A DNA stretch of 64,000 nucleotides from positions 4,128,001 to 4,192,000 of the forward strand of contig OY760937.1 of NCBI GenBank assembly GCA_963664225.1, written 5' to 3'. The position numbers and the translations under genes are program-made. The notes under the pieces are model-generated. The model did no database searches, had not been told where the DNA came from, and saw only the letters and a program-made list of their open reading frames with translations. The DNA is from Verrucomicrobiia bacterium (GTDB taxonomy: Bacteria; Verrucomicrobiota; Verrucomicrobiia; Limisphaerales; UBA1319). Every line of letters begins with the position of its first letter. Position 1 is the stretch's first letter. Of the stretch, positions 26,165 through 32,912 are shown in pieces.

Positions 26165-26435
26165 ATACCATTCTTTCGCTCTAAAAGAGGGGACAAGCTA
26201 ATAATTACATCGGCCCACCGCAAGCCAAATTTTGGATTTTTTGCAGGGCAGGCGGCTTTTGGATCATTTCAAGTGTGGATGCGAGGCGTTTAAACAGTCG
26301 CCCTGGCGCCGTGGTTCCCGGAATGCAGCAGTTTTTGCCATGATAATACGGGATGACGGGTGTCCGGTGCTCCTGCGAGCAGAGGACGGCCTGAAATGGA
26401 ATTGATTTATACGATGGATCGCACCATAAGTGAGC

Positions 26436-29400
26436 ATGCCCAATGCAAGACCTTCAAATCCTTTCTGGAGCCGCCGTGATTTTCTGTCGGGGCTGGCGCA
26501 AATAGGCGTGGTATGCACTGTCGCACCCGTACCGATGGCGTGGGGAGAGGAAACGCCCGCAACGGGAATTCCGGACCCGGTGCTGACCTTTCCAGGTCCA
26601 TGGAGTTTTAATCGACCCAAAGCGGGGCTCATCCTGGTGACCGACCAGCAATTGGACGATTTGCAGGATCCCGACAAGGAAGTGGATGTCAGCCTGTCTT
26701 CGACACCCAACCGGATCACGTTGCGGAGTTTTTGCGCGCAACAACAGGCCGCCGGGGTTCGCACCATCATTCTGGCGTTCGACCACTTTTTCGCCCAATA
26801 CCGGAAGGGGCAGGGGGAAAAAGGCCGCGAGTATATGCCGGATACGGATGCCTACCTCCAGCGCATCCAAAAGATCAGCCAGACGCTGAAAGAATACGGC
26901 CTGGGTCTGGAATTGAGCCTGCTCAGTCCACTGGAACTGGGGCCGGGGTATCGCAAGCAAACGGGCGGTCATGGCCGCTGGGTGCAATACCGCGAAGGAG
27001 TGCGCGACGCGAAGACCGGCTTTTACGATGTGCAACTCTGGGAGCACCGACGCTGGACCAATAACAAGGGAACCATCGATGTGCGGCGCGATGGCGTGCG
27101 CGTATTCGCGTTTAAGGAGCAACGCGTGGGGGGAACTGCTTTCTACGCGGTGAACCCGGCTGAAATTGTGGAGTTGAAAGAAAAGCCGGAGTTGCGCGAG
27201 TGGGAGGGGGCGTCGGTGGATGTGGGAGGGAGTTTCTCCGCGCGCCGACTCAGTGTCAGCGGAAGCGGGGATGCGCAGGCGGTGGGACTGGACCGTGTGC
27301 TGGTGGTTGTTTCCTATGACACGCCGGAACTGGATTATTTCAGTCCCCAGGCCGCGCCTTTCCTGAAAAGTCTGGTTCAACGTTACCACGAGGCGGGGGT
27401 GCCATTGAACGGGCTTTACTCGGACGAAATGCACATCCAGCAGGACTGGGTTTATAGCGGGCATCACGACGAGGGCCAATTCACGCTGCGATATCTGACG
27501 CAATCCATGGCGGAGGCCTTTGCTTCAACCTACGGTGCCGAATTCAAGGACTTCGAAAAGTATCTGGTCTATTTTTGCTACGGCCAGCATGGATTTTTAT
27601 CCAACCTGGATGCGCGGCTGCAGGACCAGCATGTGTTGGATGGCTCGCCTGAGGGCATCCAGCGCACGTTCCTGCTGCGACGCCGGTATTATGATTTGCT
27701 GGATCGGACCGTGATCGGGTTGTTCACCGGGGCCAGGGAGTATGCCGAATCCCTCTATGGGCACGCGCTTGAAGCCCGTGCTCACGCGACCTGGGCGCAG
27801 AGTCCGACGATTGATTACTGGGAGCGGGGCAATCAACCGCACGCCCCCAAGCAATACGAATACACGCCGGATTTTCAGTGGTCGAACACCATCCAGCAAT
27901 CTGCCGCAGCCTGCGCGGATTACTTTCGGTGGAACGATTTTCTCACGGGCGGGGGTAACGACCATGCCGAAGGGGGCTGGTCCGACCGCGACTACTATGC
28001 CCTGGCGCTGGCGTGTTCAACGGGGATTCTCAACCGGGTTCCGTATGCCTATGCGGCGCACTGGGGGATGCCTGCGGCGGCCTCCGAGCGACGACAGGCC
28101 CTTGTGGATGCCTATGGGACATCAGCGCAGCCTTCGTTTCAGGCAATCGAAAACTCGGAGCATCGCGACGTGGAGGTGCTGATGTTGTATCCGCTTTCGC
28201 TGGTTGCGTGCGAGGAACGTTTTGGGAGTTGGATGACGCAATACGGCTACGCGAACTACGTCACTGCGGAACGGTTGTTGTCCGCGGGCAAAGTGACGGG
28301 GGACGGGCGGATCGCCATGGCCGGACGCAGTTTCAGCACGTTGGCCGCGCTGTTTGAACCGCTGCCTCCGGCGGGCTTGATGGAATTTCTGGAGGACTTT
28401 GTCAACAAGGGCGGGCGCTTGATCTGGTCGGGCCCACCGCCGCGACTGGATATGAGCGGCACGGCGATTTTGGAGCGCTGGCAGAATCTCATGGGAGTGC
28501 AGCGTCTGGACTTCGCTCAGGAAGGACTTTCCGCACCGGGTCAAATGGTTGAATTCGAGGGCGCGCTCCAAACGGTTCCCAAACAAACCATCCTCACTGC
28601 GTTCCTCGTGGATCGTGTGTATCCGGTCGCGCCGCAGAAAGAGGCGGGTGTTCTTGCGCGAGTGGATGGAAAAATCACGGGCACCAGCCGCAAAACGGCG
28701 CAGGGCGGAAGCGCGGTTTATCTGGGATTCCGTCCCCGCGACGACCAGGCGGCCTCGCTGGGTTATGAAACGCGGACCTGGTTTGAGATTCTCAAGGCGT
28801 TGGGGGCGTATCCAAAGACACGGGAGAACGTGCCCACGCAGGATAATCCGAGTGTGTTGTCCCGGGAAAATCCCTGGCTGGCGTGCCGTTTCCCGAACGG
28901 GACAGTGACCGTGGCCGTGCATTACAATCGTCATGTGGAAAGCTGGCCGGGCGGATTCCAGCGCAATCCCAAGGAGGACGAAACCATCCTGGCGGGCAAT
29001 CCACTTCCACCCGACCGTCTGGAGCTTAATGCGATCTGGATCAACGGTTGGAAGGTAAGTTACCGGGGGCGTTTGCTGGTGGCATTTCGCGCGGGTGAGG
29101 GCAATACCCTGCTGGCCTTTGGCGGCTATGATTGTGAGCGGATTGTCATCAACGACCGGGAGCATCGCTTCGCGGACAAGCCCATGCCGCATCTGGCCTG
29201 GGCGCCTGTGGCCACGAACCGGCGTGTGACTGGCGGGGCGGTGATGGAGATTTGGGCGGTGGGTGACGCCCTCATAAGTATTCCGTTGCCCCCGGACGCA
29301 ATGAAGGGAAAACTGTTTTTCGCGGGAACCAAACTTGGTTCGCTGGGTGGCGAGATTCCATCCGAGTGCAGGGAAGGCGTCCTGCATTTTGAGTCAAAAT

Positions 29401-29438
29401 CCAGTTGGCCGCAAAAGCACTTGTATTGGGGTGTATGA
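26436..29438 (+). CDS. Large Tat-exported hypothetical protein, possibly glycoside hydrolase-like
   Basis: SRRDFL twin-arginine signal; aromatic-rich; YSDEMH motif; no family recognised with certainty. Confidence 0.6.
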   Translation: MPNARPSNPFWSRRDFLSGLAQIGVVCTVAPVPMAWGEETPATGIPDPVLTFPGPWSFNRPKAGLILVTDQQLDDLQDPDKEVDVSLSSTPNRITLRSFCAQQQAAGVRTIILAFDHFFAQYRKGQGEKGREYMPDTDAYLQRIQKISQTLKEYGLGLELSLLSPLELGPGYRKQTGGHGRWVQYREGVRDAKTGFYDVQLWEHRRWTNNKGTIDVRRDGVRVFAFKEQRVGGTAFYAVNPAEIVELKEKPELREWEGASVDVGGSFSARRLSVSGSGDAQAVGLDRVLVVVSYDTPELDYFSPQAAPFLKSLVQRYHEAGVPLNGLYSDEMHIQQDWVYSGHHDEGQFTLRYLTQSMAEAFASTYGAEFKDFEKYLVYFCYGQHGFLSNLDARLQDQHVLDGSPEGIQRTFLLRRRYYDLLDRTVIGLFTGAREYAESLYGHALEARAHATWAQSPTIDYWERGNQPHAPKQYEYTPDFQWSNTIQQSAAACADYFRWNDFLTGGGNDHAEGGWSDRDYYALALACSTGILNRVPYAYAAHWGMPAAASERRQALVDAYGTSAQPSFQAIENSEHRDVEVLMLYPLSLVACEERFGSWMTQYGYANYVTAERLLSAGKVTGDGRIAMAGRSFSTLAALFEPLPPAGLMEFLEDFVNKGGRLIWSGPPPRLDMSGTAILERWQNLMGVQRLDFAQEGLSAPGQMVEFEGALQTVPKQTILTAFLVDRVYPVAPQKEAGVLARVDGKITGTSRKTAQGGSAVYLGFRPRDDQAASLGYETRTWFEILKALGAYPKTRENVPTQDNPSVLSRENPWLACRFPNGTVTVAVHYNRHVESWPGGFQRNPKEDETILAGNPLPPDRLELNAIWINGWKVSYRGRLLVAFRAGEGNTLLAFGGYDCERIVINDREHRFADKPMPHLAWAPVATNRRVTGGAVMEIWAVGDALISIPLPPDAMKGKLFFAGTKLGSLGGEIPSECREGVLHFESKSSWPQKHLYWGV

Positions 29439-29583: not shown

Positions 29584-30114
29584 TCACGCACCTGTCGTCT
29601 GCAGCGATTTGGCAGGTGGCAACATCAATTGCAGATAGATTGCATCGAACCTTTGATTGAACTTCTGGCCGACATCCCGCAAGTGCGCGACCTTCTGGAA
29701 TCCGAATTTCTCGTGCAGTCGAAGGCTCGGTGTCTGATCTGCGGAGATGTTTGCAAGAATGGAACGCAGGCCCGAGCGCCGCGCGGCATCAATCAGTGCC
29801 TGGAGCAACTGACTCCCAATCCGCTGACGGTGAAAATCATGATGCACATAGATGGAGTCTTCCAGCATGCCCGCGGCAGTGTAGGCCGCCCGGAATGAGC
29901 CGAGCGCGCCCCAGCCGACGACGCGCCCGTCATGCTCGGCAACCACAATGGGCATGGACGGTGTGTGCTCCTGATACCAGGCGATGCGTTCGGCTTCCGA
30001 ACACGGTTGCGTGGTCCAAACGCAAGTGGAGTGCGCCACGTAATGATTGTAGATCGCGTTGATTTCGGTGAGGTCGGCGGAACTGCCCGGTCGGATGATG
30101 AGGTGGTCCATCAT
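29584..30114 (-). CDS. GNAT N-acetyltransferase, YncA/phosphinothricin acetyltransferase family; possibly an old gene cassette
   Basis: INAIYNHYV, EDSIYV, RIGSQLL, SLRLHEKFGF, VGQKF. Confidence 0.9.
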   Translation of the reverse strand: MMDHLIIRPGSSADLTEINAIYNHYVAHSTCVWTTQPCSEAERIAWYQEHTPSMPIVVAEHDGRVVGWGALGSFRAAYTAAGMLEDSIYVHHDFHRQRIGSQLLQALIDAARRSGLRSILANISADQTPSLRLHEKFGFQKVAHLRDVGQKFNQRFDAIYLQLMLPPAKSLQTTGA

Positions 30115-30154: not shown

Positions 30155-30254
30155 GGTAAACGTGGAGGGGTTAGGCGCTCGGGGGTGAGGACATGAACCG
30201 CGTGCGGAACTGGAGACGCCATTCCGTCTTGCCTGTTGCGATATTTTGTCAGGC
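30155..30254 (-). repeat. Degenerate attC site
   Basis: Minus strand GCCTGAC...CAGTTCCGCACGCGGTTCATG...GTTTACC, 100 bp; shares the TTCCGC..CGCGGTTCA core with the other sites. Confidence 0.6.
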
Positions 30255-30278
30255 TGCTGGTCGTAAATCATCTGCGTA

Positions 30279-30581
30279 TCAAGTCAAAGCCCTGCCTTTT
30301 CTCTCTCGCCACGCAGCCCAGGCCAACATGACGAGATACTGCGCTATCCAGCCGATCAACAAAGCTGGCACCGCACTCCAAAGCAATGTCTCAACAAAAA
30401 AGCGCCAAATGTCATGGGTGATTCTGTAATCAGTCTGGTGCAAATAGCTCATCAAATAACCCCAGTCCGAAATCATCGAACCCTTCACATCGCGTGTCCT
30501 CGCCCAACTATAAACTATCGGCGGGACGCTAAGCGCCATCCATAGCCACCAATTTATCTTTAGCTTGCGATGAATTTCCAT
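30279..30581 (-). CDS. Cassette-encoded small membrane protein
   Basis: ATG 11 nt after the attC core GTTAGGT; two hydrophobic Trp-rich segments. Confidence 0.7.
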   Translation of the reverse strand: MEIHRKLKINWWLWMALSVPPIVYSWARTRDVKGSMISDWGYLMSYLHQTDYRITHDIWRFFVETLLWSAVPALLIGWIAQYLVMLAWAAWRERKGRALT

Positions 30582-30592
30582 ACGCGTAAGCA

Positions 30593-30691
30593 ACCTAACG
30601 TGGATAGATGAGCCGACGCTGACTCGCGGCGTGAAGCGCGTCAACGGAATAGGCCGCGACAACGGCGGTTGGACCAGGAGATCGGTTAGGC
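30593..30691 (-). repeat. attC site (99 bp)
   Basis: Minus strand GCCTAAC...GTTAGGT; the upstream ORF's TAA stop lies within GCCTAAC. Confidence 0.88.
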
Positions 30692-30964
30692 CACGTTGTG
30701 ACTCTCTGAAACATGACTCTTGCGTGTGTAAATGCTCCGCAATCGCTGCCAAATCCATAAGGCGACAGTATCAACAGTAGCAAAAATGAGTGCGTAAAGG
30801 CCGCCCCAAAGTACGCGGTCTGAAACCGTCGCTATGTCCTTGATAACCTTCCGCTCGGGATAAACGACGTATAGGTTGTAGTCGCCGATGCTCGCGAAAC
30901 ACGCCCACGCCACTAGGAGCGTCACAAAGAAAACGGTGGTGCAAGTGATTCGCATACGTTTCAT
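30686..30964 (-). CDS. Cassette-encoded small membrane protein
   Basis: GTTAGGC-C-ATG start; two hydrophobic helices; stop codon inside the inverse core. Confidence 0.75.
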   Translation of the reverse strand: MKRMRITCTTVFFVTLLVAWACFASIGDYNLYVVYPERKVIKDIATVSDRVLWGGLYALIFATVDTVALWIWQRLRSIYTRKSHVSESHNVA

Positions 30965-30965
30965 G

Positions 30966-31064
30966 GCCTAACGACAAAAGTTGATCCACCGCCGTGTTGT
31001 GGCGTGAAGCCAGATAGCGGAACGGACCGAGACAACGGCGGATGGAGCCGGAGAGTGGGTAGAT
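30966..31064 (-). repeat. attC site (99 bp, inverse core mutated to ATCTACC)
   Basis: ATCTACC...TCCATCCGCCGTTG/CAACACGGCGGTGGA...GTTAGGC. Confidence 0.85.
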
Positions 31065-31071
31065 GACTTCA

Positions 31072-31467
31072 TCAGTCAATGGCGTTAAGCAGTGAAGGAA
31101 CCGCACCCGCAAACCAAACGAACAATCCGATGCTCCACGTTCCAATTCGGAAAGCAAAAGCACCCCGGCGGAATGGCAAGGGGACGACCTGACCGAGAGC
31201 GGCCAGTCCCAGAAAGGAGGCGCAGGCGGGCAAGCACCACCGGGCGGCCATCCATGCAGCACCATCGCCTGGTCTGGCGATGATGCCGGCGAACGGGCCT
31301 GTAACTGTGGCCAGCGTCGCCCTGAGGACAAGCGGGAGGTCGTGGTGTATTGCCCTCCAGTTCATCAGGCAGCAAAACAACACGAGCGCCATAAACGCTG
31401 CCAATAGTCCACCGGCGACAAAGACGTGAGCACGCGTGAAGTTATTTCGAAGGCGTAACATCGTCAT
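31072..31467 (-). CDS. Cassette-encoded multi-TM protein
   Basis: ATG overlaps the core site (GTTAGATG); 3-4 hydrophobic segments. Confidence 0.75.
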   Translation of the reverse strand: MTMLRLRNNFTRAHVFVAGGLLAAFMALVLFCCLMNWRAIHHDLPLVLRATLATVTGPFAGIIARPGDGAAWMAARWCLPACASFLGLAALGQVVPLPFRRGAFAFRIGTWSIGLFVWFAGAVPSLLNAID

Positions 31468-31564
31468 CTAACGTAAAAAGCTGATCCACCGCCAACTTGC
31501 GGCGTGAACCGCGACAGCGGAACGCGCCGAGACAAGGGTGGCGAGCTCCGGAGAGTGGGTAGCA
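31466..31564 (-). repeat. attC site (99 bp, inverse core mutated to TGCTACC)
   Basis: Same length and internal consensus as its neighbours; ends GTTAGAT. Confidence 0.85.
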
Positions 31565-31570
31565 TCAGGC

Positions 31571-31816
31571 TCATTTTTCCCTAAAAATCTTCCTTTCCAA
31601 CTCGGTGTAATGGCCAGTCTCCAGTTTGTGTGGCGTGAGAATAGAACAGGAAAGTTCTCGTGACATATCATCGGCGAAAGTGTGGAAATGCTCATTCGCT
31701 TCCGGGTCGGTGAGCAGCCCGTCTAACTGCTTCCGAAGATTTGTCGCCTCGGTCACGGTCAGATAAAGCTGCAACACCATTACTGACTGTTCTCGTTCTG
31801 TGTCTAAAATGCGCAT
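31571..31816 (-). CDS. Cassette-encoded small soluble protein (81 aa)
   Basis: MRILDTERE...EHFHTFADD; fills the space between two attC sites. Confidence 0.7.
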   Translation of the reverse strand: MRILDTEREQSVMVLQLYLTVTEATNLRKQLDGLLTDPEANEHFHTFADDMSRELSCSILTPHKLETGHYTELERKIFREK

Positions 31817-31836
31817 AAAAGTGGTGGTGCAGTGAT

Positions 31837-31935
31837 TCCTAACCTTGAAAGTTGATCCGCCGCCGACTCGCGGCGTGAACCGCGACAGCGGAACGGACCG
31901 AGACAAGGGTGGTTGGTGACGGGGACTGGTTAGAC
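31837..31935 (-). repeat. attC site (99 bp)
   Basis: Minus strand GTCTAAC...CCGTTCCGCTGTCGCGGTTCACGCCGCGAGTCGGCGG...GTTAGGA. Confidence 0.88.
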
Positions 31936-31947
31936 GCATGTCTCATC

Positions 31948-32274
31948 TCAAAATCGTGCCGAATGATAAATAAAATGTGCGCGATTCTCCTCTGAAAATG
32001 GGCTTTCGCGAACTAAAGCATGAATGCCCGAGTGGCTAATCTTTGCAATCTTCACTCCGTTCAGCTCACAGGTCCAAGAGTGCCCGACTCCGGCAACTGG
32101 CGGAAGATAACCAGAAGAAACCTCTCTGGCGAAGATTTCTGGATCAACAAACGAATATATCTCGACCATCTTCTCATGTGGCGCGTCGCAATCATCGCCC
32201 GCACATACCGACTGGCGGGTTAAGAAGACCTGAATCTTCGGTCTGGCTTTTAGAATTTGGAACTCGGTTTTCAT
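31948..32274 (-). CDS. First-cassette small soluble protein (108 aa)
   Basis: ATG 11 nt after GTTGGGC; TRQSVCAGDDCDAPH motif. Confidence 0.7.
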   Translation of the reverse strand: MKTEFQILKARPKIQVFLTRQSVCAGDDCDAPHEKMVEIYSFVDPEIFAREVSSGYLPPVAGVGHSWTCELNGVKIAKISHSGIHALVRESPFSEENRAHFIYHSARF

Positions 32275-32285
32275 GCGCGAATGCC

Positions 32286-32384
32286 GCCCAACAGTATTTA
32301 TTGTCTCAAACTTAGACGCCGGAAACAAACCGGGTTGCCGGTGCCCTTTAGGGGAGATTAACCCCGTATTGCATTAAAAAGCAA
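32286..32384 (-). promoter_or_regulatory. attI-like junction (GTTGGGC at 32292-32286) with an upstream sigma70-like promoter
   Basis: AATAAATACTG/TTGGGC not preceded by an attC body; TTGCTT-N18-TAATCT at 32384-32355 points into the array. Confidence 0.5.
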
Positions 32385-32472
32385 GAAAATAGTGTTTTGG
32401 CGCGGGAAAATAGGTTGGGTTATTGCGAATGATGCGCAAGCAGGTGGGACGCGCGGGAGATTGATGGAAATG

Positions 32473-32541
32473 ATGCCGCTCCTACGGAGCTTGAATCTCG
32501 TTGTTGTTCCATTTCTATAAACATGGCGCTCCCATGGAGCT
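32473..32541. repeat. Pair of 19-bp REP-like direct repeats 50 bp apart
   Basis: ATGCCGCTCCTACGGAGCT and ATGGCGCTCCCATGGAGCT (GCTCC/GGAGC hairpin). Confidence 0.6.
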
Positions 32542-32690
32542 ACCAATAAACCACACAGATTACCATGCGTTTGGCGGGGTTGGTCGCAAAGTGACTGAAT
32601 GTCGCTTGATGCATTAAAAGCTCAAGGTAGAGAACCTCAGGGTGCGTAGGTTCATTGGCAGCCTTGCCCTACCGGGAAGGTCCGGGGGAC

Positions 32691-32901
32691 GGCTCGGCGG
32701 GAGCCTCGCCCTACCGTTGTGCGGCTCGGTGGGAACCTCGCACCACCCTTGTGCGGCTCGGCGGGAGCCTCGCCCTACCGTTGTGCGGCTCGGCGGGAGC
32801 CTCGCCCTACCGTTGTGCGGCTTGGCGGCCTCGCCCTACCGTTGTGCGGCTTGGCGGCCTCGTACCACCGTTGTGCGGCTCGGTGGGAACCTCGCCCTAC
32901 C
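32691..32901. repeat. Tandem array of seven REP-like units (period 32/29 bp)
   Basis: GGCTCGGCGGGAGCCTCGCCCTACC + GTTGTGC linker; reverse strand begins GGTAG; an eighth decayed copy at about 32649-32673. Confidence 0.9.
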
Positions 32902-32912
32902 GGGATGGTTTA

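Follow-up and report, generated by a model that had tools for sequence, protein, structure and literature searches.

In the Verrucomicrobiia bacterium assembly GCA_963664225.1, a 64,000-nt stretch of contig OY760937.1 (positions 4,128,001 to 4,192,000 of the forward strand; hereafter the window) contains, between its positions 30155 and 32292, a row of small open reading frames (ORFs) separated by repeats of 99 nts. This locus raises the question of whether the repeated units are integron cassettes and, if so, whether the repeats are attC recombination sites of the usual kind. A first reading of the letters without database searches (the sequence-only reading) described an integrase-less integron cassette array with equal-length attC sites. 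The layout and the end motifs of such an array are retained here, while the assignment to standard attCs did not survive examination of the spacing, of the bulged base and of the scores in stand-in models. The locus is probably an integron-like array of five promoterless cassettes with non-canonical sites, similar to a cluster of attC sites lacking integrases (CALIN). It is termed CALIN-like because the 30 kb to each side are free of an integrase, and its sites are not classed as standard attCs because two defining features were tested and were absent. What was observed comprises how the array is laid out, the motifs at its boundaries, the asymmetry between strands, and a repeat family that recurs beside unrelated ORFs.

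A repeat search over the window recovered a family of four copies at 30595-30689, 30968-31062, 31468-31562 and 31839-31933, which over 95 nts in register are 71, 79, 100 and 81% identical to the reference copy, with spacings between successive copies of 373, 500 and 371 nts. The four copies align without gaps over 105 columns, hence the unit is exactly 99 nts long between its end motifs; similarity begins at CTA(A/C)C and stops at GTTAG. On the minus strand, repeat 1 (31837-31935, GTCTAAC...GTTAGGA), repeat 2 (31466-31564, TGCTACC...GTTAGAT), repeat 3 (30966-31064, ATCTACC...GTTAGGC) and repeat 4 (30593-30691, GCCTAAC...GTTAGGT) score 117.9, 114.9, 106.9 and 110.7 bits, respectively, with R1, a covariance model built from the four copies and run with filters off. 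Over the 64 kb, R1 detected only these four repeats (106.9 to 117.9 bits), the next best match scoring 11.8 bits, and an nhmmer search agreed. The four 99-bp sites of the sequence-only reading are thereby confirmed. That the repeats reflect chance or an assembly artefact is so improbable that it can be set aside: a degenerate core pattern gives four matches in 64 kb versus 0.01 expected (four or more in 0 of 100 shuffles), the R1 scores reach 107 to 118 bits, and about 146 independent proteins of other origin contain the 99-nt unit. All four intact repeats lie within one stretch of about 2 kb and share one orientation. An Rfam scan of the window returned 0 families.

A fifth, degenerate repeat had been proposed at 30155-30254 on the same strand. 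By motif and alignment, its centre (30194-30210, minus strand) still carries the central hairpin motif GTTCCGC..GCGGTTCA, which has three matches in the window, the other two in intact repeats, versus 0.00 expected. The flanks of this remnant have diverged, and it gave no match to R1 at E ≤ 10 or to nhmmer at E ≤ 100. The decayed site is therefore retained for its central motif only, being unrecovered by either search.

The repeats delimit five co-oriented small ORFs of the minus strand; every unit has a single ORF with a repeat behind it (the remnant in the case of the fifth). With the crossover set at G|TT, cassette 1 spans 31843-32291 (449 nts) and carries ORF c1 (32274 to 31948, 108 aa, soluble), cassette 2 spans 31472-31842 (371 nts) with c2 (31816 to 31571, 81 aa, soluble), and cassette 3 spans 30972-31471 (500 nts) with c3 (31467 to 31072, 131 aa, three hydrophobic segments). 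Cassette 4 spans 30599-30971 (373 nts) with c4 (30964 to 30686, 92 aa, two hydrophobic segments), and cassette 5 spans 30161-30598 with c5 (30581 to 30279, 100 aa, hydrophobic), its length being 438 nts if the remnant GTTTACC is its end. The first four lengths reproduce those of the sequence-only reading and the fifth follows from its coordinates. The 5′ boundary of cassette 1 was inferred from a motif alone, the putative leading core GTTGGGC at 32286-32292. Two overlaps between genes and sites that had been pointed out earlier are present: the c4 stop codon TAA (30686-30688) lies inside GCCTAAC, and the c3 ATG (ORF 31072-31467) overlaps GTTAGATG and the last bases of repeat 2. Repeats at places where no single ORF is delimited would, according to the sequence-only reading, count against it; none occurs in the window.

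The ends of the repeats carry the motifs of integron sites. All R″ boxes are of integron type: two sites have GTCTAAC and GCCTAAC, the other two have TGCTACC and ATCTACC with ACC in place of AAC; the four R′ boxes are GTTAGGA, GTTAGAT, GTTAGGC and GTTAGGT. The mutually complementary ends RYYYAAC...GTTRRRY of attC sites were hence found, together with the arrangement of a CALIN, that is, at least two co-oriented sites, every one of them at the end of a single promoterless ORF, and no intI nearby. The GC content of the array is about 0.49-0.55 versus about 0.59-0.61 in the flanks, cassette 3 being the exception.

Strand asymmetry follows the same logic. On the top strand, the GC skew is -0.10 to -0.24 and the AT skew -0.16 to -0.38 in 4 of 4 sites, and the GC skew of the ORF bodies is 0.00 to 0.28. 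Folding, which the sequence-only reading had proposed as a check, showed the bottom strand (the plus strand of the window) to be more stable than the top strand in three of the four sites, with a mean difference of 1.8 kcal/mol. The stabler, purine-rich bottom strand of attC sites is thus present. For comparison, a bottom-strand advantage of 2.12 kcal/mol and purine-rich bottom strands were described for 263 attC sites (Nivina 2016, PMC5027507). The bottom-strand AAC is followed by G in three of the four sites, a base reported as conserved at this position in most attCs (Bouvier 2009, PMC2727003).

The repeat family extends far beyond the window. One reading frame stays open through a repeat (ORF 31939 to 31571), and the resulting 40-residue read-through peptide matched four other proteins in a word-indexed search and 148 representatives in an exhaustive search at E ≤ 0.001. 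The family set used here contains 147 proteins, two unrelated repeat proteins (P0148 and P0209) having been dropped and P0124, a match of the word-indexed search, added. Family proteins share LTSRRSQPPLALSVPLSRFTSRVGGGSAFFVR, and the stretch of the unit from L to R measures 32 residues in 92 of 95. In 97 of 110 proteins the unit is preceded by C, R, S or G, residues whose codons have G at the second position, and in 121 of 130 it is followed by P, R, H, L or Q, residues whose codons start with C. The 32-codon length and these flanking codons imply a family unit of 99 nts with the ends GNCTAAC...GTTAGRC. What adjoins the unit is highly variable: the downstream segments of 40 aa or more, 116 in number, sort into 109 unrelated groups, and 35 upstream segments into 28 groups. 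A Met lies within 10 residues past the unit in 44 of 93 proteins versus 21% at control positions, and a recurrent short leader, ..HYTxMK, occurs in about ten proteins. Six proteins contain two copies of the unit that point the same way and are separated by roughly 20 to 450 nts.

With 62-83% peptide identity to family members, the four window copies are, by sequence comparison, diverged members of a widespread, length-invariant family adjoining many different small ORFs. This pattern resembles that of chromosomal integron sites, and a dispersed repeat could give the same counts. The uniform sites had earlier been taken as a hint of a resident chromosomal integron elsewhere in this lineage; the occurrence of the 99-nt unit in about 146 other proteins, beside unrelated sequences, fits a more widespread system, with no intI linked to it. 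A tblastn search with the family member P0122 against plasmids gave no match. The 21-base repeat pattern had 0 matches in a genome-contig collection, hence the genome of the window and its close carriers lie outside that collection. A search for read-through peptides of the bottom strand among family members suffered from stop-codon bias and is not used as evidence. Among proteins P0121 to P0269, 13 share about 45 residues ending in ..CRTSNLNPP, 11 share ..DTDCPLCNTQQLT in place of LTSRRS, and nine share ..RKMSFHTGS.

On an integron model, each cassette would comprise one small ORF and a 99-nt recombination site running from the inverse core GNCTAAC to the core GTTAGRC. The bottom strand would fold into a hairpin, and a tyrosine recombinase encoded elsewhere, if it still exists, would bind the paired core boxes and the second GC-rich helix. 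Cleavage would occur in the 5′-AAC-3′ of the bottom strand, corresponding to G|TT on the top strand, and the cassettes would be excised as circles and re-inserted.

The pairing of the cassette ends counts for an integron-like array; its weak statistics and the missing recombinase are the first of several results that weigh against one. In units that were once circular, the leading core of a cassette should pair with its own trailing inverse core, and the two examples given by the sequence-only reading were reproduced: GTTAGGC/GCCTAAC is exact and GTTAGAT/ATCTACC has one mismatch, the other three cassettes having two mismatches each. In total, 28 of 35 positions are complementary between the leading core and the inverse core of the same cassette, versus 22 of 35 for the core of the same site. 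The true cassette order gives the maximum pairing of all orderings and is tied by 8 of 120 permutations, which makes the once-circular signature of the cassette ends statistically weak. The claim that the window lacks a tyrosine recombinase held in all 175 ORFs searched and in the upstream gap: Phage_integrase had no match at E ≤ 0.001 in 62 window ORFs of at least 90 aa, none in 113 further overlapping ORFs of at least 110 aa, and none at E ≤ 1 in the 12 stop-to-stop ORFs of the gap (32293-32912). An integrase is thus absent from the 64-kb window and a remnant of one from the place where it is expected, and no link of the 99-nt family to intI was shown. The arrangement of a complete integron, with intI, attI and Pc beside the first cassette, was not found in the window.

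The inner architecture of the sites also departs from that of attCs. In the IntegronFinder attC alignment, the 5′ arm consists of R″ (7), a spacer of 5 nts (at most 8 columns) and L″ (8, with the fourth base unpaired), and the 3′ arm, after a loop treated as an insertion, of L′ (7), a spacer of 5-6 nts (at most 10 columns) and R′ (7) (PMC4889954). An L box at the canonical spacing of 5-6 nts was found in none of the four window sites. The best L score at this spacing is 4.5-5.5 of 7, a value reached by 61 to 264 of 300 shuffles. An L-like helix, which counts in favour of integron-type sites, does occur at a common position, 11-13 and 12-14 nts from the core boxes; a single base bulges out of its R″ arm, and it is best formed in repeat 3 (TCCA[T]CCG/CGGTGGA, 7 of 7 paired, equalled by 6 of 300 shuffles). 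In the structure defined by us, 85.0% of the cells are paired on the bottom strand versus 83.8% on the top strand, values that change to 89% and 79% when the L-like helix is taken by itself. The first extrahelical base of attCs, on the R″-L″ arm, is a G on the bottom strand (PMC2727003). In the window sites the bulge lies on this correct arm, but the base is T or A when read on the top strand and accordingly A or T on the bottom one, so that the extrahelical G is missing. Furthermore, the hairpins are modestly stable (DNA z-scores from +0.56 to -2.54), and no compensatory base changes were found among the four copies in the structure defined by us. An RNAalifold consensus from the four copies gave unstable structures and was discarded. 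A different helix, on the plus strand of the window, joins columns 22-27 and 93-98 of alignment A2 by pairing ATCCAC to GTGGGT. It shares bases with the R″ box; repeat 4 preserves it by two compensatory changes (AGCCGA/TCGGTT), and G-T pairs make it better on the plus strand.

The wide spacing is not a product of decay. The GC-rich helix of the wider family (CCN CCN / GGN GGN) lies at the same distance from the ends as in the window, and since the Pro-Pro and Gly-Gly-Gly codons of the family place it equally far, the 12-13 nt spacing is a family trait. Owing to this spacer of 12-13 unpaired nts and to the non-G bulge, the cognate enzyme, if any, must accept a wider geometry or reach.

The sites were further compared with models of class 1 attCs, for which nine plasmid loci with class 1 integrons served as positive control. 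A canonical R/L-box rule gave 28 candidates at these loci, 19 of them at cassette ends, corresponding to 16 distinct real attCs with spacers of 4-8 nts; the remaining nine lie inside genes or an intron and are likely false calls. A MAFFT alignment of the 16 mixed-length attCs left the L′ boxes out of register, hence a stand-in model was grown from four 60-nt attCs and re-aligned by Infernal. Two such covariance models, R2 (four seeds, the 60-nt attCs) and R3 (13 rows), have spacers of 5 and 6 columns. R2 recovered nine further attC copies beyond its seeds in the plasmid loci at E ≤ 0.01. In the control plasmids L084 (3353-4702) and L085 (4601-5950), a group II intron lies in the cassette array beside an attC. 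Group II introns next to attC sites are a known association.

Neither model recognized the window sites, which adds to the points against. With filters off, R2 had no match to the four sites at E ≤ 10. R3 matched site 4 with 12.2 bits (E 1.1) and exact ends, through the R boxes alone, and site 3 partially with 10.8 bits; sites 1 and 2 had no match. The background of R3 is one 13.5-bit match in 1.23 Mb of unrelated loci, while real attCs outside its training rows score 29.0 and 23.3 bits (arr-3), 28.1 bits (qacG2, 99 nts), 27.6 and 22.9 bits (blaOXA-2) and 16.2 bits (dfrA27). Three of seven real attC types outside the training rows (qnrVC1, cupin and aadA5) are missed by R3. The window sites hence score at background in both stand-in class 1 models, which are not IntegronFinder's own model. 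The sequence-only reading had named the lack of a hit to the attC covariance model as an outcome that would speak against it, and the result comes near to this, with the difference that stand-ins were run in place of IntegronFinder's model.

These scores leave some room for a standard CALIN whose sites IntegronFinder's own attC model would call and whose departures are artefacts of the stand-in models and of having only four diverged copies, an explanation that is possible and yet not the favoured one. The IntegronFinder alignment, with its 8 and 10 spacer columns, is more tolerant than R2 and R3 (PMC4889954), the best R3 match in the window has the exact ends of site 4, and R3 overlooks the three real attC types named above. 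On the other hand, all four copies need spacers of 12-13 nts, the codons of the wider family keep the helix at this same distance, and the bulged base is not G.

The remaining point against integron-like cassettes comes from the wider family, in which sequence upstream of the unit is conserved in subsets of 13, 11 and 9 proteins. From cassettes alone, such conservation would not be expected unless they are multi-copy cassettes; for the subfamilies with 5′ conservation, insertions and variant left arms are further possibilities. The same observation bears on another explanation, in which the unit is an intergenic repeat specific to the lineage and has nothing to do with integrons, being either similar to known dispersed palindromes or an RNA-level leader or stabiliser of small genes; its clustering in the window would then be fortuitous and its core-like ends convergent or coincidental. 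Repetitive extragenic palindromic sequences (REP) and their doublets (REPIN), enterobacterial repetitive intergenic consensus sequences (ERIC) and Correia-type miniature inverted-repeat transposable elements (MITEs) are imperfect palindromes of about 100 nts that are abundant in intergenic DNA and that gene callers sometimes read through. In these features, the window unit is similar: it is an imperfect palindrome of about 100 nts, abundant, intergenic and read through. The unit moreover fails both the canonical attC architecture and the stand-in models, its palindromy is weak, its sense-strand RNA folds with z-scores of -1.4 to -2.6, great abundance and uniformity of the family match those of dispersed repeats, and no recombinase lies in the window. 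The start codon close behind the unit and the recurrent ..HYTxMK leader would suit a 5′ leader.

Several properties of the locus are at odds with such a repeat, which we consider unlikely without dismissing it. Five copies lie within 2.1 kb, with no further copy in the remaining 62 kb, and unlike REP, ERIC or MITE copies they are clustered, all co-oriented, one per ORF, with integron core motifs at their ends. In the wider family, these ends are the exact integron 7-mers GNCTAAC and GTTAGRC, in the right order, in about 100 contexts. No direct target duplications were found at the ends of the window's copies; instead, the bases flanking the repeats complement each other across a cassette. Purine skew and stability favour the strand predicted by integron logic. 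No Y1 transposase or other transposase family was detected in the window ORFs, the 64 kb hold no REP-associated tyrosine transposase (RAYT), and no Rfam family accounts for the unit. The marks of REP, REPIN or MITE elements, namely dispersal in either orientation, a duplication or GTAG head, and a RAYT or transposase, are hence not those of the window.

For the integron-like array, the closest known systems are CALINs and sedentary chromosomal integrons. Integrase-less cassette clusters are common and already recorded in Verrucomicrobia, and a plain reading of the locus as one of them is ordinary. A 2016 survey, in which a typical CALIN has about five sites, lists both an In0 and a complete integron for Coraliomargarita akajimensis and two CALINs of 6 and 7 attCs for Opitutus terrae (PMC4889954); Verrucomicrobia are also listed in PMC8618304. 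As in CALINs, at least two attC-like sites stand in a row, their number is about five, intI is absent and the location is chromosomal (PMC4889954); the window ORFs are also small, co-oriented and of unknown function. In contrast, CALINs are defined by attC covariance model matches, whereas the window sites are at background in the two stand-in models, have spacers of 12-13 nts instead of 5-6, and lack a G as the bulged base.

The repeats of Vibrio cholerae are a uniform attC family of a sedentary chromosomal integron. Taxon-specific conservation of attCs was also described (Ghaly 2021, PMC8352920). Similar to the attC families of sedentary chromosomal integrons, the 99-nt family has a fixed length and high identity, adjoins many unrelated small ORFs and includes tandem copies a few hundred nts apart. 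It differs from them in its inner architecture, in the divergence of the window copies and in having no integrase or attI linked to it.

It can be proposed tentatively, as the less probable side of the matter, that the 99-nt unit represents a separate architectural class of integron-like sites in soil Verrucomicrobiota, served by a divergent integrase or another tyrosine recombinase. Sites of this class would combine canonical core boxes with a second binding helix at about double the usual distance and would have no extrahelical G. A full-text literature search of partial coverage returned no description of an attC with doubled R-L spacing or of this 99-nt family. If this class is real, standard attC models would miss large cassette reservoirs in Verrucomicrobiota. 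What is less ordinary about the locus is that integron end motifs and strand asymmetry are kept while the canonical spacing is not, and that the length of 99 nts is maintained across about 100 contexts. If the sites are recombined, they show how much geometry an integron-type recombinase can tolerate, and surveys based on models under-count cassettes in a dominant soil phylum. If they are not recombined, the family mimics attC ends, and cassettes called by eye or by motif carry a risk of false positives.

The cassette genes themselves are poorly characterized, c1 to c5 having no match in Pfam or NCBIfam. The product of c1 belongs to a conserved family of 108 aa with 221 clusters at E ≤ 0.001, the 120 listed of these 221 being 68-93% identical to it; the commonest phylum of this family in the Atlas is Verrucomicrobiota, and Cys, His and Trp positions are invariant. 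Its confident AlphaFold (AF2) model has a predicted local distance difference test (pLDDT) score of 86.7 and a predicted template modelling (pTM) score of 0.78, and a structure search with it gave weak beta-grasp-like matches (best E 0.013, TM up to 0.51), none at E ≤ 0.001. For c2, 13 homologous clusters of 54-86% identity were found. The N-terminal extensions of c1 and c2 homologues contain no read-through of the repeat. The products of c3, c4 and c5 are small hydrophobic proteins, counted as three membrane proteins.

Upstream of cassette 1, the expected place of intI and attI is occupied by a non-coding gap of 620 nts (32293-32912). No sigma-70-like promoter was found on its minus strand, which directly upstream of cassette 1 has a terminator-like hairpin (32342-32329) with a T-rich run after it. 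Judged from the sequence, with no upstream promoter found and this hairpin before c1, expression of the array is uncertain. The gap also contains a tandem array at 32690-32907 with a 32-nt unit, six copies of 63-92% identity and periods of 32 and 29 nts. This tandem array is GC-rich, is flanked by related 33-nt units on both sides (32649-32909 in all) and matches no Pfam family in any frame; a gene for a beta-helix protein lies beyond the gap.

On the other side, the next gene after the remnant encodes a GNAT acetyltransferase (29584-30114, minus strand) that resembles phosphinothricin/arsinothricin-resistance proteins below the curated cut-offs. Its GC content resembles that of the flanks, and neither R1 nor nhmmer found a repeat after it. 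A flanking gene on the plus strand (26430-29438) encodes a protein of 1002 aa with no Pfam family and a weak hint of a Tat signal. In genome contigs, this protein has 211 confirmed relatives of about 48-68% identity, in metagenome-assembled genomes (MAGs) of Verrucomicrobiota, Acidobacteriota, Hydrogenedentota, Planctomycetota, Nitrospirota and Armatimonadota. The best of them, at 58-68% identity, belong to Verrucomicrobiota / subdivision 3 MAGs. Across 80 loci of these relatives, no synteny and no homologue of the cassettes, the GNAT gene or the repeat was found. Because the flanks are non-syntenic and the homologues absent from the 80 loci, a comparison of insertion sites is impossible.

The setting of the array is chromosomal, in Verrucomicrobiota. 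A complete division/cell-wall (dcw) cluster spans window positions 5-20354, with mraZ, rsmH, ftsI, murE, murF, mraY, murD and a gene for a LysM protein, continuing with ftsW, murG, murC, murB, ddl, ftsQ, ftsA and ftsZ. The window also has ribosomal protein genes and lpxK.

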